Below, in pieces: positions 16,867-27,216 of a DNA stretch of 31,200 nt; positions within the stretch are counted from its first letter, which is position 1; each line of letters starts with the position of its first letter. The stretch comes from an uncultured Saprospiraceae bacterium (GTDB taxonomy: Bacteria > Bacteroidota > Bacteroidia > Chitinophagales > Saprospiraceae), in contig CAYXKO010000001.1 in the NCBI GenBank assembly GCA_964465435.1, positions 1 to 31,200 of the forward strand, in the 5' to 3' direction. The notes beneath the pieces are model-generated. The model worked only from the letters and a program-made list of their open reading frames with translations. It was not told where the DNA came from and searched no databases. The translations under genes were made by a program, and so were the position numbers.

Positions 16867-17409
16867 TCAATCCAGTTTTCTTCCGGTGGGCACGCGCGTG
16901 TTTTTCTCGATCACCCGGGATTGCTTTAAATTGATCAGCAAGCCTGAAAATGCAGATCCCGATGAAGTGCTATACTCCTTGCCGTTGTAGGTGACGATGC
17001 CGCTGTGCCGGTCCCATTCCTTTCCAAGGAGCACATAGCGGTTGTCAAACTTTGGATTGGGTCCAAACATGAGATAGGCATCCTGACCCTCCTGTTCAAA
17101 ACCAATGGCCAGACGATTTTCTTTGGGCGAAAACAGCAGGACACCCGGAGTGCCTCTTTCGAAAATGACTTCCTCAATCTTTTCTCCATTGACGTACCGG
17201 ATTTTTCCGTTTCTGATGGAAGTTTGGGCAGATTCCGCCTGCCTTCTCAATACAATGTCCTGGGACAAATAAAATTGTATTCGCTTCAATTCTGTCGGTC
17301 CCCAGTTATTGTTGTCAATGATTCTCTGGTCCAATGGGGTAAGTCGCGGACTGCAGGAATATCCGAGTGCTCCAATTACAAAAAGGAGCATGAGGTGGCT
17401 AAATTTCAT
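16867..17409 (-). CDS. Hypothetical lipoprotein
   Basis: MKFSHLMLLFVIGALGYSC lipobox followed by a beta-rich soluble domain. Start moved from 17454 to ATG 17409. Confidence 0.7.
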   Translation of the reverse strand: MKFSHLMLLFVIGALGYSCSPRLTPLDQRIIDNNNWGPTELKRIQFYLSQDIVLRRQAESAQTSIRNGKIRYVNGEKIEEVIFERGTPGVLLFSPKENRLAIGFEQEGQDAYLMFGPNPKFDNRYVLLGKEWDRHSGIVTYNGKEYSTSSGSAFSGLLINLKQSRVIEKNTRVPTGRKLD

Positions 17410-17536
17410 AGGCCATATTTTTTCACGAATGTAACGTGAGCCTGGGAAAACCATTTCATCTTTAAATAATCTTTAACCATGCCGGGCGCGTTTTATCACA
17501 ATCTTAACCTCCAAAGGCAGGGCACGCCTTTTTGTC

Positions 17537-17565: not shown

Positions 17566-18309
17566 TTGGTAGAGTTCCATTATCAAAAGGAGGGCCTGTC
17601 CCTGGATGAGCACAGGATCGCGGACTGGATCCGCAAGGTTGCGGAGGATCACGGAAGGAAGCTGGGCATGTACAGTATGGTCTTTTGTGACAGGGATTTC
17701 CTCATGGATTATAACCGGAAATACCTTGGACACGATTACCACACAGACATCATTACATTTCCCCTTCAGGAGGATCCTATTTCTGCGGAGGTCTATATCA
17801 GCTTAGACAGGGTATATGAGCAAGCTGACGAGCTGGGCGAATCCCGGGACCGGGAATTGCTGCGCGTGATCATCCATGGCTTGCTGCACATGGTGGGTTA
17901 CGGAGATAAGACCGAAGAGGAGGTCCAAAGGATGCGCGAGGCTGAATCCCTGGCCCTGGACCAATACAGACAATCGGGAAGGCCACCCACCCACTTCTAC
18001 GAGCAGGTCTATGATTTGGTCAGGATGATTCCGCAAGGTCGTGTAAGCACTTACGGTGCAATCGCCGCTTTTCTCGGTCTTGGTTCTGCCAGGATGGTGG
18101 GTTGGGCGCTTAATCAGCTCAAAGGCAGGAGAGGAGACATTCCTGCCCACCGGGTGATCAATGCCCGGGGGGTGCTCAGCGGCAAAAGCTTTTTTGAACC
18201 CGGGGAAATGGAATCCAGCCTTCAGGCAGAAGGGATCCTCGTGGTCAATGACCAGGTCCAGGATTTTGACAAATTGTTTTGGGATCCCTCGCTGGAACTC
18301 GATTTATGA
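17566..18309 (+). CDS. ybeY: rRNA maturation RNase YbeY fused to an alkyltransferase-like (ATL/MGMT-family) domain
   Basis: aa 1-135: YbeY motifs N.KYLGHDYHTDIITF, EVYISLD, RVIIHGLLHMVGYGDK. aa 143-247: FYEQVYDLVRMIPQGRVSTYGAIA, ARMVGWAL, IPAHRVINARG. One frame, no stop between them. Confidence 0.9.
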   Translation: MVEFHYQKEGLSLDEHRIADWIRKVAEDHGRKLGMYSMVFCDRDFLMDYNRKYLGHDYHTDIITFPLQEDPISAEVYISLDRVYEQADELGESRDRELLRVIIHGLLHMVGYGDKTEEEVQRMREAESLALDQYRQSGRPPTHFYEQVYDLVRMIPQGRVSTYGAIAAFLGLGSARMVGWALNQLKGRRGDIPAHRVINARGVLSGKSFFEPGEMESSLQAEGILVVNDQVQDFDKLFWDPSLELDL

Positions 18310-18374
18310 CAAATCAATTTTATGCGCTGAACCCAGGGATTATTCATTTGTTTATCTGGCTTAAATTACGATTT

Positions 18375-18809
18375 ATGCAAATTTCAAAATTCCTGATCCT
18401 CTTGTTCTTTTTTGCTTCATGGGTTTCATTAAGTGCTCAGAACAATTCAGTGCTGGGCGTCTGGAGAACCATCGATGATGCCACCGGCCAGCCCAAGTCC
18501 CACGTCGAACTGTATATGAAATCCGGGAAAATGTTTGGAAGGGTGGTGGAATTGTTGCCCGCGGCAACCACCCGGGTCTGCAATAATTGTCCCGGCGAAA
18601 AAAACGGGAAATCCCTGATTGGAATGGATGTACTCTGGAACATGGTCCCGGATGCTGAAGAATGGGAGGGCGGACAGATCGTAGATCCGAAAAATGGCAA
18701 GATCTACTCCTGCGTGCTTTCCACCGATGGTCCCGATAAACTGAGTGTCAGGGGTTATATAGGCATTTCTCTGCTGGGCAGAACCCAGACCTGGCATCGG
18801 GTAAAATAA
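18375..18809 (+). CDS. DUF2147 domain protein (secreted/periplasmic)
   Basis: Signal peptide MQISKFLILLFFFASWVSLSAQ; GVWRTIDD, GEKNGKSLIGMDVL, WEGGQIVDPKNGKIYSC, LSVRGYIGISLLGRTQTWHR are typical of DUF2147. Confidence 0.88.
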   Translation: MQISKFLILLFFFASWVSLSAQNNSVLGVWRTIDDATGQPKSHVELYMKSGKMFGRVVELLPAATTRVCNNCPGEKNGKSLIGMDVLWNMVPDAEEWEGGQIVDPKNGKIYSCVLSTDGPDKLSVRGYIGISLLGRTQTWHRVK

Positions 18810-19160: not shown

Positions 19161-19988
19161 TCAGGTCCTGATGTAAATCAGGTTTCCTGAATTGCTGATA
19201 AACGGATGACTTTGCGTACCCCTCCAAAGTTTGAAACCCGCCTTTGTCAAGATGGCGTGGCATCCATCAAAATTACCCTGATGAAATTCCAGGATTACGA
19301 GTTTTAATTTCTCATATCCGAGTGTGGATATTGCACCCTGCAAAATTTCAACCTCGGATCCTTCGGCATCTATCTTGACGGCTGCCGGCGGGGGCAGGTC
19401 GTTCAATTGATCCAATTTTCTGATTTCCACTTTTTTTGTTTTCCCGCCAGAGGAAATTCTGTTGTTGATTCCAAGTTGGGTGCTGAAATCCACTTGTCCC
19501 TCCCTGTTACCAAGAGCCACAGGAAGAAACATATGGTTTTTTTGCAAATGGTTGAGCTCGGCAATTCTTCTGCTTAGTTTTTGGGAATCCCCGTCAGGTT
19601 CAAATTGGACACAGTAAACGTTTTTGTGTGCCGCCAAATAGTGACTGTAAATCCCCGTGTTGGCGCCGATATCGTAAAATGCATCTCCGGGGTTGAGTTT
19701 TTCAGAGAGGAGTTCAAATTCAACTTTCTCGGTGATGCCATAGTACCAGGGATTTTTTGAGGACTGAAAGTTCCTGTGAGCGATCCACAGTAACCGGTCT
19801 GTCCATCTGAATATCTGTTCTTTTCGCAGGCAATTAATCCATAGGCCTTTCAGGATGTAAATGAAAAAGCCGGAATGGGAGGATCCGTACCGACGATAAA
19901 GCCTTAGTTTTTCACGGACACGATCAATAAGATGATTCAGTTTACTGAGCTTCAAATTCACTCCAGGCATTTGCAAAATCCTTTCCAA
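19161..19988 (-). CDS. FkbM family SAM-dependent methyltransferase
   Basis: FYDIGANTGIYS (SAM motif), FEPD, VALGNREG, RKLD, VKIDAEGSEVEILQGA, LEFH. The true start is probably near 19950-19965, overlapping the upstream stop. Confidence 0.88.
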   Translation of the reverse strand: MERILQMPGVNLKLSKLNHLIDRVREKLRLYRRYGSSHSGFFIYILKGLWINCLRKEQIFRWTDRLLWIAHRNFQSSKNPWYYGITEKVEFELLSEKLNPGDAFYDIGANTGIYSHYLAAHKNVYCVQFEPDGDSQKLSRRIAELNHLQKNHMFLPVALGNREGQVDFSTQLGINNRISSGGKTKKVEIRKLDQLNDLPPPAAVKIDAEGSEVEILQGAISTLGYEKLKLVILEFHQGNFDGCHAILTKAGFKLWRGTQSHPFISNSGNLIYIRT

Positions 19989-20958
19989 TGAGATTCTTTT
20001 TAAAACGGGAAGGACCGGATCGGATCCTGTCCATCAGTATGCATTGCCCGGGCGATAAATAGGATTCCGGAGGTCTGCCTTCGCCCAGTGCGGCATTCAC
20101 TCTGGCTGCCTGCAGTCTGGTCATGGGAAGAAACCTGTAGTTTGATTTGTACAGGTAATATTTCAACTCAGGATCCTCGCGAAAGGGTCCCTGTCTGCGG
20201 GTTTCGATGGCACCTATGGGAGATTTTTGGTGGATATCGCCGACAAAAAGCCGGTCAGCGTTACCGGACTCCATGCCTCTCCGGAGCAGCTGTTCCAGAC
20301 TGATGCGGTCCGGCCTGTATTCCACTTCGACCACTTCAGACCCTCCCATGAACCCGGCCCGCGTGGATATCACACCCTCGATCCGGCCATAGTGCTTTTC
20401 TCCGCTCCAAAAGCAATACATACCAATGTAGGCTTTTTTAGTTCCCCTTGCATCTGCCCCAAATTCCTCCTCGAGTATTTCCATCCATGCCGGTACCCTT
20501 TTGCCTGATTTGATCAGGGCGGCATTGATCCGGGACATGAGTCCGTGTTTGGTGTAATTGCCTGATATTCTTTCGGTCACAGCTTTTAAATCAGCGTCGA
20601 CGATCCGGATGACCGGGTTGTTCCAGGAAGGCTCTCCAAAAAGGTCCAGGACCCTTTTGTCCTCTCCGGGCTTATTGTTGTGGATGGCCAGCGGAACAAA
20701 ATATTCAGAAATGGCCTCTACTACCAAAGGATGAGACAAAACGTCCGAACCGTAAGTCCGGCAGGTCTGGCATCCCGGGATTTCCTGAAATAAGATCAGG
20801 ATCGGCTTCGAGCTCTTTCGGGCCGTTTGTCGCGCTTCTTCCAGAGACCTGAGCCAGCTGACCCGCCCAAGTTCGATGGGATTTCCCTGCCCGTAAAGGA
20901 AGCCTGGCATGAGAAGCAATGCCATGGCAAGTGGTAAAAAGATTAAATGCTTGATCAT
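19942..20958 (-). CDS. Secreted thioredoxin-like (CxxC) domain fused to a truncated MsrA-like domain
   Basis: Signal peptide; W...EEARQTARKSSKPILILFQEIPGCQTC thioredoxin-like domain; then GMYCFWSGE...GVISTRAGFMGG.EVVEVEYRPDRISLEQLL, matching MsrA (GCFW; T.VGY.GG; EVV.V.YDP..ISY..LL). Confidence 0.8.
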   Translation of the reverse strand: MIKHLIFLPLAMALLLMPGFLYGQGNPIELGRVSWLRSLEEARQTARKSSKPILILFQEIPGCQTCRTYGSDVLSHPLVVEAISEYFVPLAIHNNKPGEDKRVLDLFGEPSWNNPVIRIVDADLKAVTERISGNYTKHGLMSRINAALIKSGKRVPAWMEILEEEFGADARGTKKAYIGMYCFWSGEKHYGRIEGVISTRAGFMGGSEVVEVEYRPDRISLEQLLRRGMESGNADRLFVGDIHQKSPIGAIETRRQGPFREDPELKYYLYKSNYRFLPMTRLQAARVNAALGEGRPPESYLSPGQCILMDRIRSGPSRFKKNLIGKDFANAWSEFEAQ

Positions 20959-23479: not shown

Positions 23480-23866
23480 TCAGACCTCAAACTCTATTGT
23501 CACGGTGCGGCCCTGATCTGAAAAAATAACTTTCTTGCATAACTTCTGCATCAGGAATACACCCCTTCCTCCACAGCGTTCGATGTTTTCTGGCAGTGTA
23601 GGATCCGGAATGGATTCCGGATCGAATCCCCTTCCTTCATCCGAAATACGAAAGGTGATGCAACGGTTTTTGTGCTCTGTATTGATATGCACAAACTTGG
23701 AGGCATCTTCGCGGTTGCCGTGAGTGATCGCATTGTTGACAGCCTCTGTAAGAGCAATCAGTACATTATGGTAATGTTCGGAACTGATGTGGTACTCTTT
23801 GAACACCTGATCGAGGTATTGTTCGATCATGGCAATGTTATGCGGTACAGAGGCGATGCGAATCAT
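23480..23866 (-). CDS. RsbW-like anti-sigma/serine kinase (HATPase_c_2 ATP-binding protein)
   Basis: ALTEAVNNAITHGN (N box), ISDEGRGFDP (G1), GGRGVFLM (G2). ATG 23866 overlaps the upstream TGA (ATGA). Confidence 0.88.
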   Translation of the reverse strand: MIRIASVPHNIAMIEQYLDQVFKEYHISSEHYHNVLIALTEAVNNAITHGNREDASKFVHINTEHKNRCITFRISDEGRGFDPESIPDPTLPENIERCGGRGVFLMQKLCKKVIFSDQGRTVTIEFEV

Positions 23867-26800
23867 CCTTGGATTCTGGATTTGTTGAAATACTCCTCGA
23901 CCAGTTTTTTGTAAAAAGGCCGAAGGTCCGGTGATATGTACTGGAACCATTCTGTTTCTGCCTGGCGTTGTTTTAAGTATTCCTCAAGCCCGGCAGGAAA
24001 CTGTCTTTCAATTTTCGTACCAGTTTCTGATTTCCGTTCTTCTTTATATTCTCTTTCCCTTTCAGAACGCTCAGCCTCAAGGAGTCTGGTTGTGATCTCC
24101 TGCTGGCGTTTGAGGGTTTCGTTGGTCAGTCTTTTGTTTACCAGGTCGCGTTCATTTTTATTCATTTTTTCTATGGCATCGCGGATTTCCTGTGACAGGC
24201 CCTGGCCCTGTTCCTTTTTCTCGTTTTCGAGATCCTGCAGTTGTTTTCTCAGTTTTGCCTGTTGCGCGGCCATTTCGGCGAATTCCTTGCTCATCTGTCC
24301 CTGACCTTTTTTCATTTGTTCGGACATTTTCTTCATCTCCTCTCCCATATTCTTTTGTCCCTCGGAGATCTTGTCCAGGGGAACTTTCCCCTTTTTTCCG
24401 CTGGGTTTCTTTCCCTTGCCGGGTTTCTTGCAAGCCTTGCTTCCAGGCTTATCGCAAGTAGCATTGCTTTGTTGCTGCTTATCGTTCATGGTCTCTGACA
24501 ACATGACGGCAAGGTCATTGACATTTTTCATGATTTTTCCCTGATGGGCAGAGGCCTGGCCCGCGTAGCGGTTCTCTAAAAATCCGAGTGTCTTTTTGAA
24601 GTTGTCATTGATCTCGCTCACTTTTTCTGTCACGTAGCTTTCGATCTCCACAATTCTTTTGCTGAGGGCGTCCAGAGAGTCCTGGATAAGCCTGAAATCA
24701 TTTTGAAGCTTGAATTGGTCCTGAACGAGAGACACATAGGCAGGTGTCTGCACATGGGTTATTTCAAAGGATTTGGTCAGTTTCTCCTGGTCGAATGACA
24801 GCACAACCAGATTTTCCAAAAGCTGCCGCAATGCCTTTACGTCTTCCTCCTGTTCCTCCTGTTCACTTTCCTGCATCTGACCTTCCATCTGGTCTGCCAT
24901 TTCGTTCATCTTGTCAGCGCCTTCTTTCTGTTCCTTTCCGGCGCCCTGGTTGTCCTTCTTGTCGATCTTCTCCTTTGCATCCTTGAGGTTTTTCTTTACC
25001 TCTTCGGCCTTTTCGGACTGGTCATCCAGTTTTTTAGGTCGTTCAAGCTCCTGGTTTTTCTGCTGGATCTCTTCCTGCTGCTTTTTCAGGTCGTCAAACT
25101 TCTTGTTGATCTCATCCTGTTCCTTTTTCAGCTCTTCATTGCTTTCCGTTTTCTTTTCGGTTTTTTCCTTGAGCTCTTCCTGCTTTTCGGCCAGTTCGCG
25201 CAGTTCGTTAATTTGATCCTTGATTTGTTTTTCCAGCTCCAGTTGCTTGAACAACTCAAGCAGCCTGTCCATCTGTTTTTGCATATCCTGCCCCTTGTCC
25301 TCAAACTGTTCGGTCATCTGAATGGCCTGATCCTTGTTGAGTTCCTGCATTAATTGCTGGATCTGATCCATCAATTGCTGCATTTGTTGCTGCATGTTCT
25401 CGTTGAAAAGTTTCTGAAGCTGTTCCTGTTTTTCCTTCAAAGGTTCGTCGGGCTGACTGAACTGTTGTTGTTTCTTCAGGTTTTCATCGTATTTCTTTTT
25501 TGCCTCGTCAAACTTTTTTTGGATCTCCTGCTGCTGGTCCAGCATTTTTTCAAGGTCCTTTTTATTTTGCCATTCGAGGTCTTTTTTCTGTCTCAGCTTA
25601 TCCTTAAAATCCTTGAGTTTGTCCTGCAGCTTTTTGGCGTCCCTGACAGCTTCTTCCAGGTTCTTTTTGATGTCCTCGTTATTTTCCGATTCCTTTTGGG
25701 CCAGTTCTTCCTTGCTTGCCATCCTGTATTCCTGTATGGAACTTTTGGTTGATTTGCTACCGTTTACGCCATCGTTGTCCCAAACTTCAAAATAGTAATT
25801 TATTTTCTCACCCGGCTGAAGTTGGAGACTCTCCATATCGAGGATATGCCTGAACGTAGCGGTTTTTTTCCCTTCTATGCGTATGGCCGTTGTCTGAAGC
25901 GCCTGTGCTTTGCCCGCTTTGTCAATTTTTTGAAAGTGAAAATCGAGGTTTCTGAGGCCATAGTCATCCGCCAGTTCTCCGCCGAAGTAAATGATGGCCT
26001 GATTGGTGCTGTCCTCAAAGGATTCCAGCTGGATCAGGGGGTGCTGGTCAGGAATGACAGATATCTGGTATTGTACCGTATCCGGATTTTTGATTTTTGC
26101 ATTGGTCAGGTACAGGGTATAGTTCATGTCCTTTAAGGCCCTTACGGAGAGGCTGTATTGGTCTTCTCCCCTGCGTTGGGTTTCCCTGGCTTCACCTGCA
26201 TCAGAAAATCTTACGCTGAGCGCGTCGGTGTTTTCTGTTTGGAAGTTCCAGTGGATCCGCGTGCCGGCCGGAACCACAAGTCCACCGGTGTTGCGCAGGG
26301 TTTCAGAGGCCCTGCCCGTATAGGAAGGATATTCCAGCTTAACCTCAAACTCACTGACGAGTGGCTTGAGGATCACGCTCAGTTTAAATTCTTCCGAACT
26401 CACATCTCCGGAAAAAATTCGGAAAGGCAGGTCTTTTTGGACATTGCTGAAAGTATATACGTATTCATCCTGGCTGACCTTGCGGAGGCGGTAACGGAAG
26501 TGATCGTATTCCACGAATACCTCGGCAGGCAGGTATTTTCCCTCGGCTCTTACGTGTAAATCGAAATCTGAATTTTGCAGCGCTTCGAGATTTTCGTTTT
26601 CCAGAACGAAATTGAAGGGAGCGGCTTTGGCAAATTCCTGGTCGTTTTGTATCAGGCGTTTGGTCGGGTCCTTGATCAGGCTGGGGGCCAGGAGCAGGAT
26701 GCTGAAGAGCATGAGAAGAGGCCAGATGGCATATCGAAGATATTTCCGGTTTCTCTGCAGATCCACCGCTTTTACAAAAGGTACGGGTTGAAGTTCTTTG

Positions 26801-27216
26801 GCTTTCTGGGCAATGCTTGCCTCGATCAGCGAACGGTCAGAATAGGCTACGGATTGGGACTTTAACTGGAGTACGTTGAGCAGTTTGTCCTGGACGTCTG
26901 AAAAATGTGTGCCTATGATCCGGGAAGCTTCTTCGTGGCTGATCAACTTGCCCAATCTGAAATAATGGAGCAAAGGTCTGATCATCCAGTAATAAAATGT
27001 ACCCAGGCTTAATCCGATGAAGGAATAGAAGAGGACCTTTCGAACTGCTTTTCCAAAGTAAAAAAAGTTTTCCAGCAGGTTGAAAGCGATGAAAACGGCA
27101 GTCAGCATACCCACGAACCAGATCATCCCCCTCAGAAACTGATTGAGATAATACTTGCGCGTAAACTCGTCGATCTTGAGAATAAGACGATCGTAGTAAC
27201 TGTCCTTCCACTCCAT
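23863..27216 (-). CDS. DUF4175-like large membrane protein (N-terminal TMs, Ig-like region, long Q/E/K coiled coil)
   Basis: 1117 aa; TM segments near aa 28-80 and 160-180; D.PP.I-type beta domains (VIPDQHPLIQL, ADDYGL, YYFEVWDNDGVNGSKSTKS); about 500 aa of coiled coil; RQQEITTRLLEAE near the end. Family name recalled from these motifs. Confidence 0.8.
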   Translation of the reverse strand: MEWKDSYYDRLILKIDEFTRKYYLNQFLRGMIWFVGMLTAVFIAFNLLENFFYFGKAVRKVLFYSFIGLSLGTFYYWMIRPLLHYFRLGKLISHEEASRIIGTHFSDVQDKLLNVLQLKSQSVAYSDRSLIEASIAQKAKELQPVPFVKAVDLQRNRKYLRYAIWPLLMLFSILLLAPSLIKDPTKRLIQNDQEFAKAAPFNFVLENENLEALQNSDFDLHVRAEGKYLPAEVFVEYDHFRYRLRKVSQDEYVYTFSNVQKDLPFRIFSGDVSSEEFKLSVILKPLVSEFEVKLEYPSYTGRASETLRNTGGLVVPAGTRIHWNFQTENTDALSVRFSDAGEARETQRRGEDQYSLSVRALKDMNYTLYLTNAKIKNPDTVQYQISVIPDQHPLIQLESFEDSTNQAIIYFGGELADDYGLRNLDFHFQKIDKAGKAQALQTTAIRIEGKKTATFRHILDMESLQLQPGEKINYYFEVWDNDGVNGSKSTKSSIQEYRMASKEELAQKESENNEDIKKNLEEAVRDAKKLQDKLKDFKDKLRQKKDLEWQNKKDLEKMLDQQQEIQKKFDEAKKKYDENLKKQQQFSQPDEPLKEKQEQLQKLFNENMQQQMQQLMDQIQQLMQELNKDQAIQMTEQFEDKGQDMQKQMDRLLELFKQLELEKQIKDQINELRELAEKQEELKEKTEKKTESNEELKKEQDEINKKFDDLKKQQEEIQQKNQELERPKKLDDQSEKAEEVKKNLKDAKEKIDKKDNQGAGKEQKEGADKMNEMADQMEGQMQESEQEEQEEDVKALRQLLENLVVLSFDQEKLTKSFEITHVQTPAYVSLVQDQFKLQNDFRLIQDSLDALSKRIVEIESYVTEKVSEINDNFKKTLGFLENRYAGQASAHQGKIMKNVNDLAVMLSETMNDKQQQSNATCDKPGSKACKKPGKGKKPSGKKGKVPLDKISEGQKNMGEEMKKMSEQMKKGQGQMSKEFAEMAAQQAKLRKQLQDLENEKKEQGQGLSQEIRDAIEKMNKNERDLVNKRLTNETLKRQQEITTRLLEAERSEREREYKEERKSETGTKIERQFPAGLEEYLKQRQAETEWFQYISPDLRPFYKKLVEEYFNKSRIQG

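Follow-up and report, generated by a model that had tools for sequence, protein, structure and literature searches.

A YbeY ribonuclease and an alkyltransferase-like domain joined in one reading frame in a genus-level group of Saprospiraceae

We found that a gene of an uncultured Saprospiraceae bacterium encodes a complete YbeY genuinely fused in frame to a complete alkyltransferase-like (ATL) domain that lacks the acceptor cysteine. The gene, ybeY-atl, lies at 17566-18309 on the forward strand of the window, by which we mean the whole stretch of DNA analysed (31,200 nucleotides of contig CAYXKO010000001.1). It represents a new domain architecture assembled from two known families. YbeY and ATL proteins have been well studied, but always as separate proteins, the former in ribosome biogenesis and the latter in DNA alkylation repair. 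YbeY is a single-strand RNA endonuclease that acts in 16S rRNA 3'-end maturation and in ribosome quality control. ATL proteins, such as E. coli YbaZ/Atl and S. pombe Atl1, bind O6-alkylguanine without repairing it and pass the lesion to nucleotide excision repair (NER). A sequence-only reading of this DNA knew of no characterised YbeY-ATL fusion, and our searches for YbeY with alkyltransferase-like, methylguanine or fused domain architecture likewise returned no publication on one.

The gene is a single 247-aa ORF with a TTG start and a TGA stop. An upstream stop is followed by four sense codons and then the TTG, a start position that homologues share. In Pfam, PF02130 (YbeY) matches aa 18-133 (E 1.3e-23, 83.7 bits against a cut-off of 25) and PF01035 (DNA_binding_1, MGMT C-terminal) matches aa 144-223 (E 4.2e-18, 65.4 bits against a cut-off of 27), and the NCBIfam equivalog model for YbeY, TIGR00043, scores 90.8 bits against a cut-off of 45. 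Methyltransf_1N had no Pfam match in the fusion; YbeY sequence precedes the ATL domain instead. Profiles, AlphaFold and Foldseek place the YbeY domain at aa 1-137 (17566-17976), and Pfam, the alignment and Foldseek place the ATL domain at aa 144-247 (17995-18306). Between them is a linker of aa 138-143 (GRPPTH, 17977-17994), delimited by AlphaFold and by the alignment of fusions, in which it is nearly constant in length and variable in sequence; the stretch QSGRPPT corresponds to aa 136-142. Thus, the profile matches, the coordinates and the conserved full-length homologues agree with the earlier description of a complete YbeY (HGLLH at aa 104-108), a short linker and a complete ATL domain in one 247-aa ORF. 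The claim that no start codon lies at the junction also stood. A separate ATL product made from an internal start was considered and rejected, since there is no in-frame ATG or other plausible start between M122 and M153, nor a sensible GTG or TTG from M122 as far as helix 1 of ATL.

The N-terminal 137 aa share the fold of YbeY from E. coli (1XM5), S. aureus (7Y7O), A. aeolicus (1OZ9) and T. maritima (1TVI). In the AlphaFold model, pLDDT exceeds 90 throughout this half (aa 1-137), whose last segment is a long C-terminal helix (aa 117-137), and Foldseek gives it TM-scores, by target length, of 0.77 to 1OZ9, 0.74 to 7Y7O and 0.73 to 1XM5. Like known YbeY proteins, the window protein passes the equivalog model, keeps the first two metal histidines and is the sole copy in its genome, but it has Asp114, Leu54 and a 110-aa C-terminal ATL appendage. 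The metal-site motif, H104-G-L-L-H108-x5-D114, is encoded at 17875-17907 and was identified from the alignment of 43 fusions and from alignment with TM1509 and AQ_1354. H104, G105, H108 and D114 are invariant in the 43 fusions, whose identity falls to 41%. Within the pattern HxxxHxxxxxH the first two histidines are retained (H104 and H108), whereas the third, a His in TM1509 and AQ_1354, is Asp114. Aspartate is in principle able to bind metal. The Arg of the FRGxD-PT motif of TM1509 and AQ_1354, which we take to be R59 of E. coli YbeY, aligns with an invariant Leu54 in the fusions, where the motif reads YLGHDYHTD. A Leu at this position is common to Bacteroidota YbeY, fused or unfused, and the Asp at the third metal position also occurs in unfused Bacteroidota YbeY. 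As both replacements are found in unfused proteins, they mark a variant at the level of the subfamily or phylum that is unrelated to the fusion; Leu54 is a subfamily variant and not a defect of the window gene.

The Bacteroidota YbeY motifs can be written YLGHDY(H/Y)TD and HGxLHxxGxxD, and in the window they fall at 17725-17760 and 17875-17907 (aa 54-65 and 104-114). His56 is invariant and might take over a role. We found no discussion of this Leu/Asp variant in the literature searched.

The C-terminal 104 aa have the MGMT C-terminal fold without the N-terminal AGT domain and, as in known ATLs, the domain keeps the Tyr and the Arg finger and lacks the acceptor Cys. We compared it with the characterised ATLs of S. 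pombe (Atl1; 3GVA, 3GX4), V. parahaemolyticus (2KIF), E. coli (YbaZ/eAtl) and T. thermophilus (TTHA1564). In Foldseek, TM-scores by target length were 0.74-0.77 to S. pombe Atl1 and V. parahaemolyticus Atl, and 0.40-0.47 to AGTs. Sequence matches in the PDB followed the same order (Atl1, E 2e-14; vpAtl, E 3e-10; OGTs, E ~1e-4). A helix-turn-helix with Y163 and the Arg finger R176 is present in this half, as is a C-terminal FWDP motif (W239, P241) that is conserved in the Bacteroidota subfamily to which the window ATL belongs. By phmmer, Y163, R176 and N199 (the phosphate-contact Tyr, the Arg finger and the Asn hinge) align with their equivalents in Atl1. In place of the alkyltransferase motif PCHRV, the protein has PAHRV at aa 193-197 (18142-18156), as had been noted from the letters, so that Ala194 stands where a catalytic alkyltransferase has its Cys. 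Across the 43 aligned fusions the acceptor position is Ala in 42, Ser in one and Cys in none. P193, R196, V197 and N199 are invariant in this set, and Y163, R176, A194 and H195 are at least 90% conserved. Atl1 and Vibrio Atl have a Trp at the Cys position, whereas the window ATL has Ala; Ala is also found there in the Thermus ATL. The window domain further differs from known ATLs in being covalently joined to an RNase. Both halves are thus complete and under strong purifying selection.

A catalytic Ogt is encoded elsewhere in the window's genome (G000) by a separate gene for 183 aa with IPCHRV (contig C7, L001:1187-1738, reverse strand). It is adjoined divergently by uvrA (C7:1868-4624, forward strand; UvrA match of 1300 bits). 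A second UvrA-like gene of this genome is split over contigs C182 and C494. Stand-alone atl genes in the family have varied, non-RNA neighbours. Among stand-alone Bacteroidota ATLs (P0264, P0165, P0053, P0057), Lys-rich tails are frequent, and in some a tail of ~30 aa extends the N terminus. One protein ends in a C-terminal tail of ~90 aa, rich in Ala, Lys and Pro and similar to histone H1, which recalls the histone-like domain of C. elegans AGT-2.

For the whole protein, AlphaFold2 run on the 43-sequence alignment gave a mean pLDDT of 91.4 and a pTM of 0.57, with linker residues 139-141 below a pLDDT of 50. The fusion is thus predicted to consist of two confident domains, connected by a short and flexible linker, whose orientation to each other is not confidently predicted. 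The single-chain model contained no fixed inter-domain interface, which is weak negative evidence. Foldseek returned no solved structure spanning both domains; each half matches the fold of its own family.

The fusion is not peculiar to one genome. A search of 5.8 billion proteins returned ~44 protein clusters with both domains, 247-259 aa long and down to 40-45% identical, beyond which further matches were single-domain YbeY or ATL proteins only. A HMMER search of 1.84 billion cluster representatives gave one representative of the fusion family among the best 150 matches. The window's genus-level group comprises 36 genomes, of which 28 are fused, three have the two genes adjacent (G336, G404, G418), three have them unlinked (G002, G531, G542; loci ~20 kb apart or on other contigs), one has YbeY only (77% complete) and one has no match (56% complete). 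The 28 take in the window's own genome, G537, where the match is partial and lies at a contig end, G524, in which a TGA falls inside the match, and G534, which is unpublished; without G534, which supports no other claim made here and was left out of the tree below, the count is 27 of 35. All six genomes with split genes retain both ybeY and atl. The fusion is therefore conserved within Saprospiraceae, and the ~44 clusters and the 28 fused genomes rule out a one-off event, although six relatives carry two separate genes.

Outside this group the arrangement was absent. In 150 other genera of the family there were no fusions and no ybeY-atl linkage, and YbeY and ATL were separate in all. Among 401 genomes of the order the fusion was restricted to the window's genus-level group and absent from the ~345 genomes elsewhere, and 80 Bacteroidia ybeY loci with 3-kb flanks showed no ybeY-atl linkage. 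These same three surveys reject a widespread ybeY-atl or ybeY-ogt synteny as a trivial cause of the fusion. In five complete fusion genomes and in the window's genome, the fusion is the only PF02130 match and the only other PF01035 match is a frame of the size of Ogt. Thus, in complete fusion genomes the fusion is the only YbeY and the only ATL, and the Cys-bearing Ogt is separate. A fusion that is the sole copy of both proteins in dozens of species, with relatives in which the genes are split, constitutes a natural experiment.

The neighbouring genes indicate how the fusion arose. Directly downstream is a DUF2147 gene (18366-18809, forward strand). In the family, stand-alone atl is usually followed by DUF2147, and the 3' side of the fusion is therefore the old atl locus. 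Upstream is a divergent gene for a hypothetical protein of 195 aa (16867-17454, reverse strand), which precedes ybeY in the fused G000 and G318, in the adjacent-gene genomes G336, G404 and G418, and in G002, where the genes are separate. The order flippase, divergent 195-aa gene, ybeY, atl, DUF2147 is common to the window, G318, G336, G404 and G418. In G002, flippase, 195-aa gene and ybeY are found at one site and NUDIX, atl and DUF2147 ~20 kb away. Where the two genes are adjacent, stop and start overlap as TAATG in G336, and gaps of 34 nt and 56 nt separate the genes in G418 and G404, respectively. The synteny of split, adjacent and fused loci places the origin of the fusion where the ybeY and atl-DUF2147 loci were joined. 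As adjacent and unlinked relatives occur in one clade, the fusion came from gene juxtaposition and its two parts are separable.

An RsbW-like HATPase_c_2 gene is the immediate upstream neighbour of ybeY both in unfused members of the family and in the main fused clade, and this neighbourhood is the ancestral state in the family. In the window it lies at 23480-23950 on the reverse strand. A large DUF4175-like protein precedes the HATPase_c_2 gene across the family (L005, L007, L008, L011-L013, L017-L022) and is found at 23863-27216 (reverse strand) in the window, where an inversion has left the pair ~5 kb from ybeY and on the other strand. No anti-sigma partner of the RsbW-like gene was visible at the loci compared.

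In an RpoB tree rooted with five family members, the genus-level group is monophyletic (100/100). The six unfused genomes form one clade (100/100) beside three fused clades, whose fused proteins are 40-55% identical to one another, and the backbone of the tree is unresolved. In the best tree the unfused genomes group with the window's clade (support 66/96), in line with the upstream synteny that they share. Monophyly of the fused genomes is not rejected on RpoB (p-AU 0.47). Trees of the ATL domain (109 columns) and the YbeY domain (137 columns) have too little resolution to order the events. The evidence tilts towards a single old fusion that later underwent fission; a single fusion, to which the split clade is sister, is also possible. 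Whichever history holds, ybeY and atl can be unlinked without loss of either.

AGT-superfamily domains have been joined to RNA enzymes more than once. In two proteins that share 40% identity, P0144 (L035:3583-4584) and P0288 (L037:3445-4503), YbeY is joined to an AGT that is full-length and has PCHRV. Both come from one metagenome sample and have a common synteny of PdxA, SpoU-methylase and M23-peptidase. Their YbeY halves are nearest to Rikenellaceae, and no AGT or ATL was found within 3 kb of ybeY at 80 loci related to them. They are known from these two contigs only and, unlike the window fusion, have both the N-terminal AGT domain and the Cys of PCHRV. The YbeY-AGT fusion is independent of that in Saprospiraceae. 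A third architecture is P0207, in which TrmB (the tRNA m7G46 methyltransferase) is joined to an ATL of the Ala type with 53% identity to the window ATL; it forms ~70 clusters from Bacteroidales MAGs. Its partner is a methyltransferase, whereas that in YbeY-ATL is a nuclease, but the ATL is of the same Ala-type subfamily. No full-length TrmB-ATL fusion appeared among the matches listed in a scan of 400 genomes of the phylum. Additionally, atl is downstream of trmB in four of six class-level trmB loci, one of which is an operon of trmB, a gene for a 211-aa membrane protein and atl, with 4-nt overlaps. The link between TrmB and ATL, by fusion or by operon, was noted at L036:5001-6002 and L158:1492-3136. 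The link with TrmB suggests a tie between Bacteroidota ATL biology and RNA housekeeping operons. Like the window fusion, YbeY-AGT and TrmB-ATL carry an AGT-superfamily domain on a housekeeping enzyme that processes or modifies RNA, and none of these has been characterised.

Nuclease partners are known from Archaea. AGT-EndoV of Ferroplasma acidarmanus and the archaeal ATL-EndoV resemble the window protein in that a lesion-binding module of the AGT superfamily is fused to an endonuclease, and a review credits the AGTendoV protein with the repair of both O6-alkylguanine and other lesions (PMC10779285). The EndoV fusions are archaeal and have a DNA/inosine repair nuclease as partner, whereas the window fusion is bacterial and its partner is a ribosome-maturation RNase.

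Based on these results, we propose, with moderate confidence, that YbeY-ATL is a bifunctional protein in which each domain acts independently. Our data show how the protein is built, that this architecture is conserved, that it arose from adjacent genes, that the motifs are intact and that the model has no confident interface; we infer the two activities and their independence from the known biology of the families. Under this model, atl was brought, together with the DUF2147 gene that follows it, to a position immediately downstream of ybeY, and the intervening stop was lost. The product would be two separately folding domains on a linker of ~6 residues. The YbeY domain, as the cell's only one, would carry out 16S rRNA 3'-end maturation and ribosome quality control. 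The ATL domain, as the only Cys-less one in the cell, would flip out O6-alkylguanine in DNA without removing the alkyl group, and the lesion that it holds may then be handed to UvrABC. What the fusion would gain is a fixed 1:1 co-expression and no new chemistry. The AGT-EndoV and ATL-EndoV fusions provide a precedent (PMC10779285). Even if the domains are independent, this is a clean and datable case in which an essential gene was fused through loss of a stop and may afterwards have been split again.

Several of our results fit this model less well. The fusion has persisted in 28 of 36 genomes, spread over three deeply diverged RpoB clades, and a neutral accident might be expected to break more often. 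YbeY has been separately fused to a full-length, Cys-bearing AGT in the two Rikenellaceae-like contigs, and TrmB has an ATL of the same Ala-type subfamily as its fusion partner or operon neighbour; three independent links between the AGT superfamily and RNA enzymes exceed what would be expected of an arbitrary partner. The short, length-conserved linker also forces the active sites close together.

The same results speak for a surveillance of RNA damage, in which the ATL domain would recognise O6-alkylguanine or another modified guanine in rRNA, tRNA or mRNA and would position the tethered YbeY so that it cuts the damaged RNA or marks damaged ribosomes for decay. We consider this possible but on the whole unlikely. 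In its favour are the three independent joinings in Bacteroidota (YbeY-ATL, YbeY-AGT and TrmB-ATL), the trmB-X-atl operon with its 4-nt overlaps, the short linker of constant length and the retention of the fusion across a long divergence. Alkylated mRNA stalls ribosomes, and YbeY already takes part in ribosome quality control. However, the DNA-contact residues of the ATL domain (Y163, R176 and the recognition helix ARMVGWA) are identical in fused and stand-alone relatives, no inter-domain interface is predicted, and a sister or nested clade is viable with split and even unlinked genes. The varied, non-RNA neighbours of stand-alone atl also argue against it. To our knowledge, no ATL or AGT acts on RNA. 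The literature searched yielded nothing relevant on ATL or AGT action on O6-methylguanine in RNA, nor any dedicated sensor of RNA damage of the O6-methylguanine type. The YbeY-AGT and TrmB-ATL fusions keep the Rosetta-stone idea alive, as a minority hypothesis. In its boldest form, which we regard as speculative and rather improbable, the Ala-type ATL of Bacteroidota would sense lesions in DNA but would also read guanine that is alkylated or modified in RNA and work with RNA enzymes, and YbeY-ATL would be a ribonuclease guided by lesions. Such an enzyme would remove alkylated rRNA or mRNA, or ribosomes stalled on such RNA, and YbeY-AGT and TrmB-ATL would be other forms of the same RNA-directed partnership.

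A different connection, and in our judgement a distinctly improbable one, would couple the sensing of alkylation to ribosome production or to transcription. In one version, ATL bound to a lesion would trap the cell's sole YbeY; sequestration of YbeY at DNA lesions would then slow 30S maturation under alkylation stress. In another, the RNase would be brought to a stalled polymerase and would clear the nascent RNA where RNA polymerase is arrested by an ATL-lesion complex, in transcription-coupled repair. The first version draws on the fusion being the only YbeY in the cell, so that a trapped ATL means a trapped YbeY, and the second on the view that ATL-lesion complexes stall RNA polymerase and trigger transcription-coupled NER (PMC10779285). 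Similarly, in YbeY-AGT a suicide Cys would bind the fate of YbeY to alkyl transfer. Against this, the argument is inferential throughout, lesions are probably far fewer than copies of YbeY, and there would be no such coupling in the split-gene relatives.

By analogy with the archaeal ATL-EndoV and AGT-EndoV, the metallo-hydrolase of YbeY might instead nick DNA beside an O6-alkylguanine held by ATL. These ATL/AGT-endonuclease fusions are a precedent (PMC10779285), and the two domains are closely tethered in the predicted structure. This idea is very improbable, however, as YbeY has been characterised as a single-strand RNA endonuclease and the fusion must still supply the housekeeping YbeY function. 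UvrA is present in the genome and provides the normal NER route, and the YbeY half has no fusion-specific change relative to unfused Bacteroidota YbeY.

The possibility that two separate genes were merged by an error of sequencing or assembly, through loss of a stop or a frameshift, is effectively refuted: short 'MGMT family protein' calls (94-138 aa) among MAG records of the same 90% clusters, and the TGA within the fusion match of G524, would fit it, but the same open junction was assembled in four independent studies, the fusion is intact in ~44 clusters and 28 genomes, many of them complete, and the split calls more likely reflect frameshift errors of long-read MAGs. The sequence-only reading had proposed to look for a lost stop in raw reads; assembled contigs speak for the fusion. 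The junction (17660-18100) is covered by Logan contigs from four runs, each of a different study, which show substitutions only and zero indels, and all are open, without a stop or frameshift. Read in frame, the substitutions nearest to the junction, at 17951 and 17976, are one Leu>Arg and one synonymous change. The window's organism is present in activated-sludge and wastewater metagenomes of at least a dozen studies. Fused proteins of at least 90% identity are recorded in NCBI, JGI, ENA and Logan, with one sequence on up to 97 contigs. Their source annotation is 'rRNA maturation RNase YbeY [Saprospiraceae bacterium]', a label that hides the repair domain in database records.

The short 'MGMT family protein' fragments (P0270, P0271, P0276 and P0278; 94-138 aa, at least 90% identical to the fusion) come from some long-read Saprospiraceae MAGs, one of which is named Candidatus Vicinibacter proximus. 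The fusion of G524 that contains the TGA lies at G524:C3:250104-250829. These fragments and the TGA are probably frameshift or base errors; recent fissions are possible. A further gene of the window was observed at 19942-20958 on the reverse strand. This 338-aa ORF has a thioredoxin-like domain and matches the profile of methionine sulfoxide reductase A over no more than its first ~33 positions, and it overlaps an ORF for an FkbM-type methyltransferase by 47 nt.
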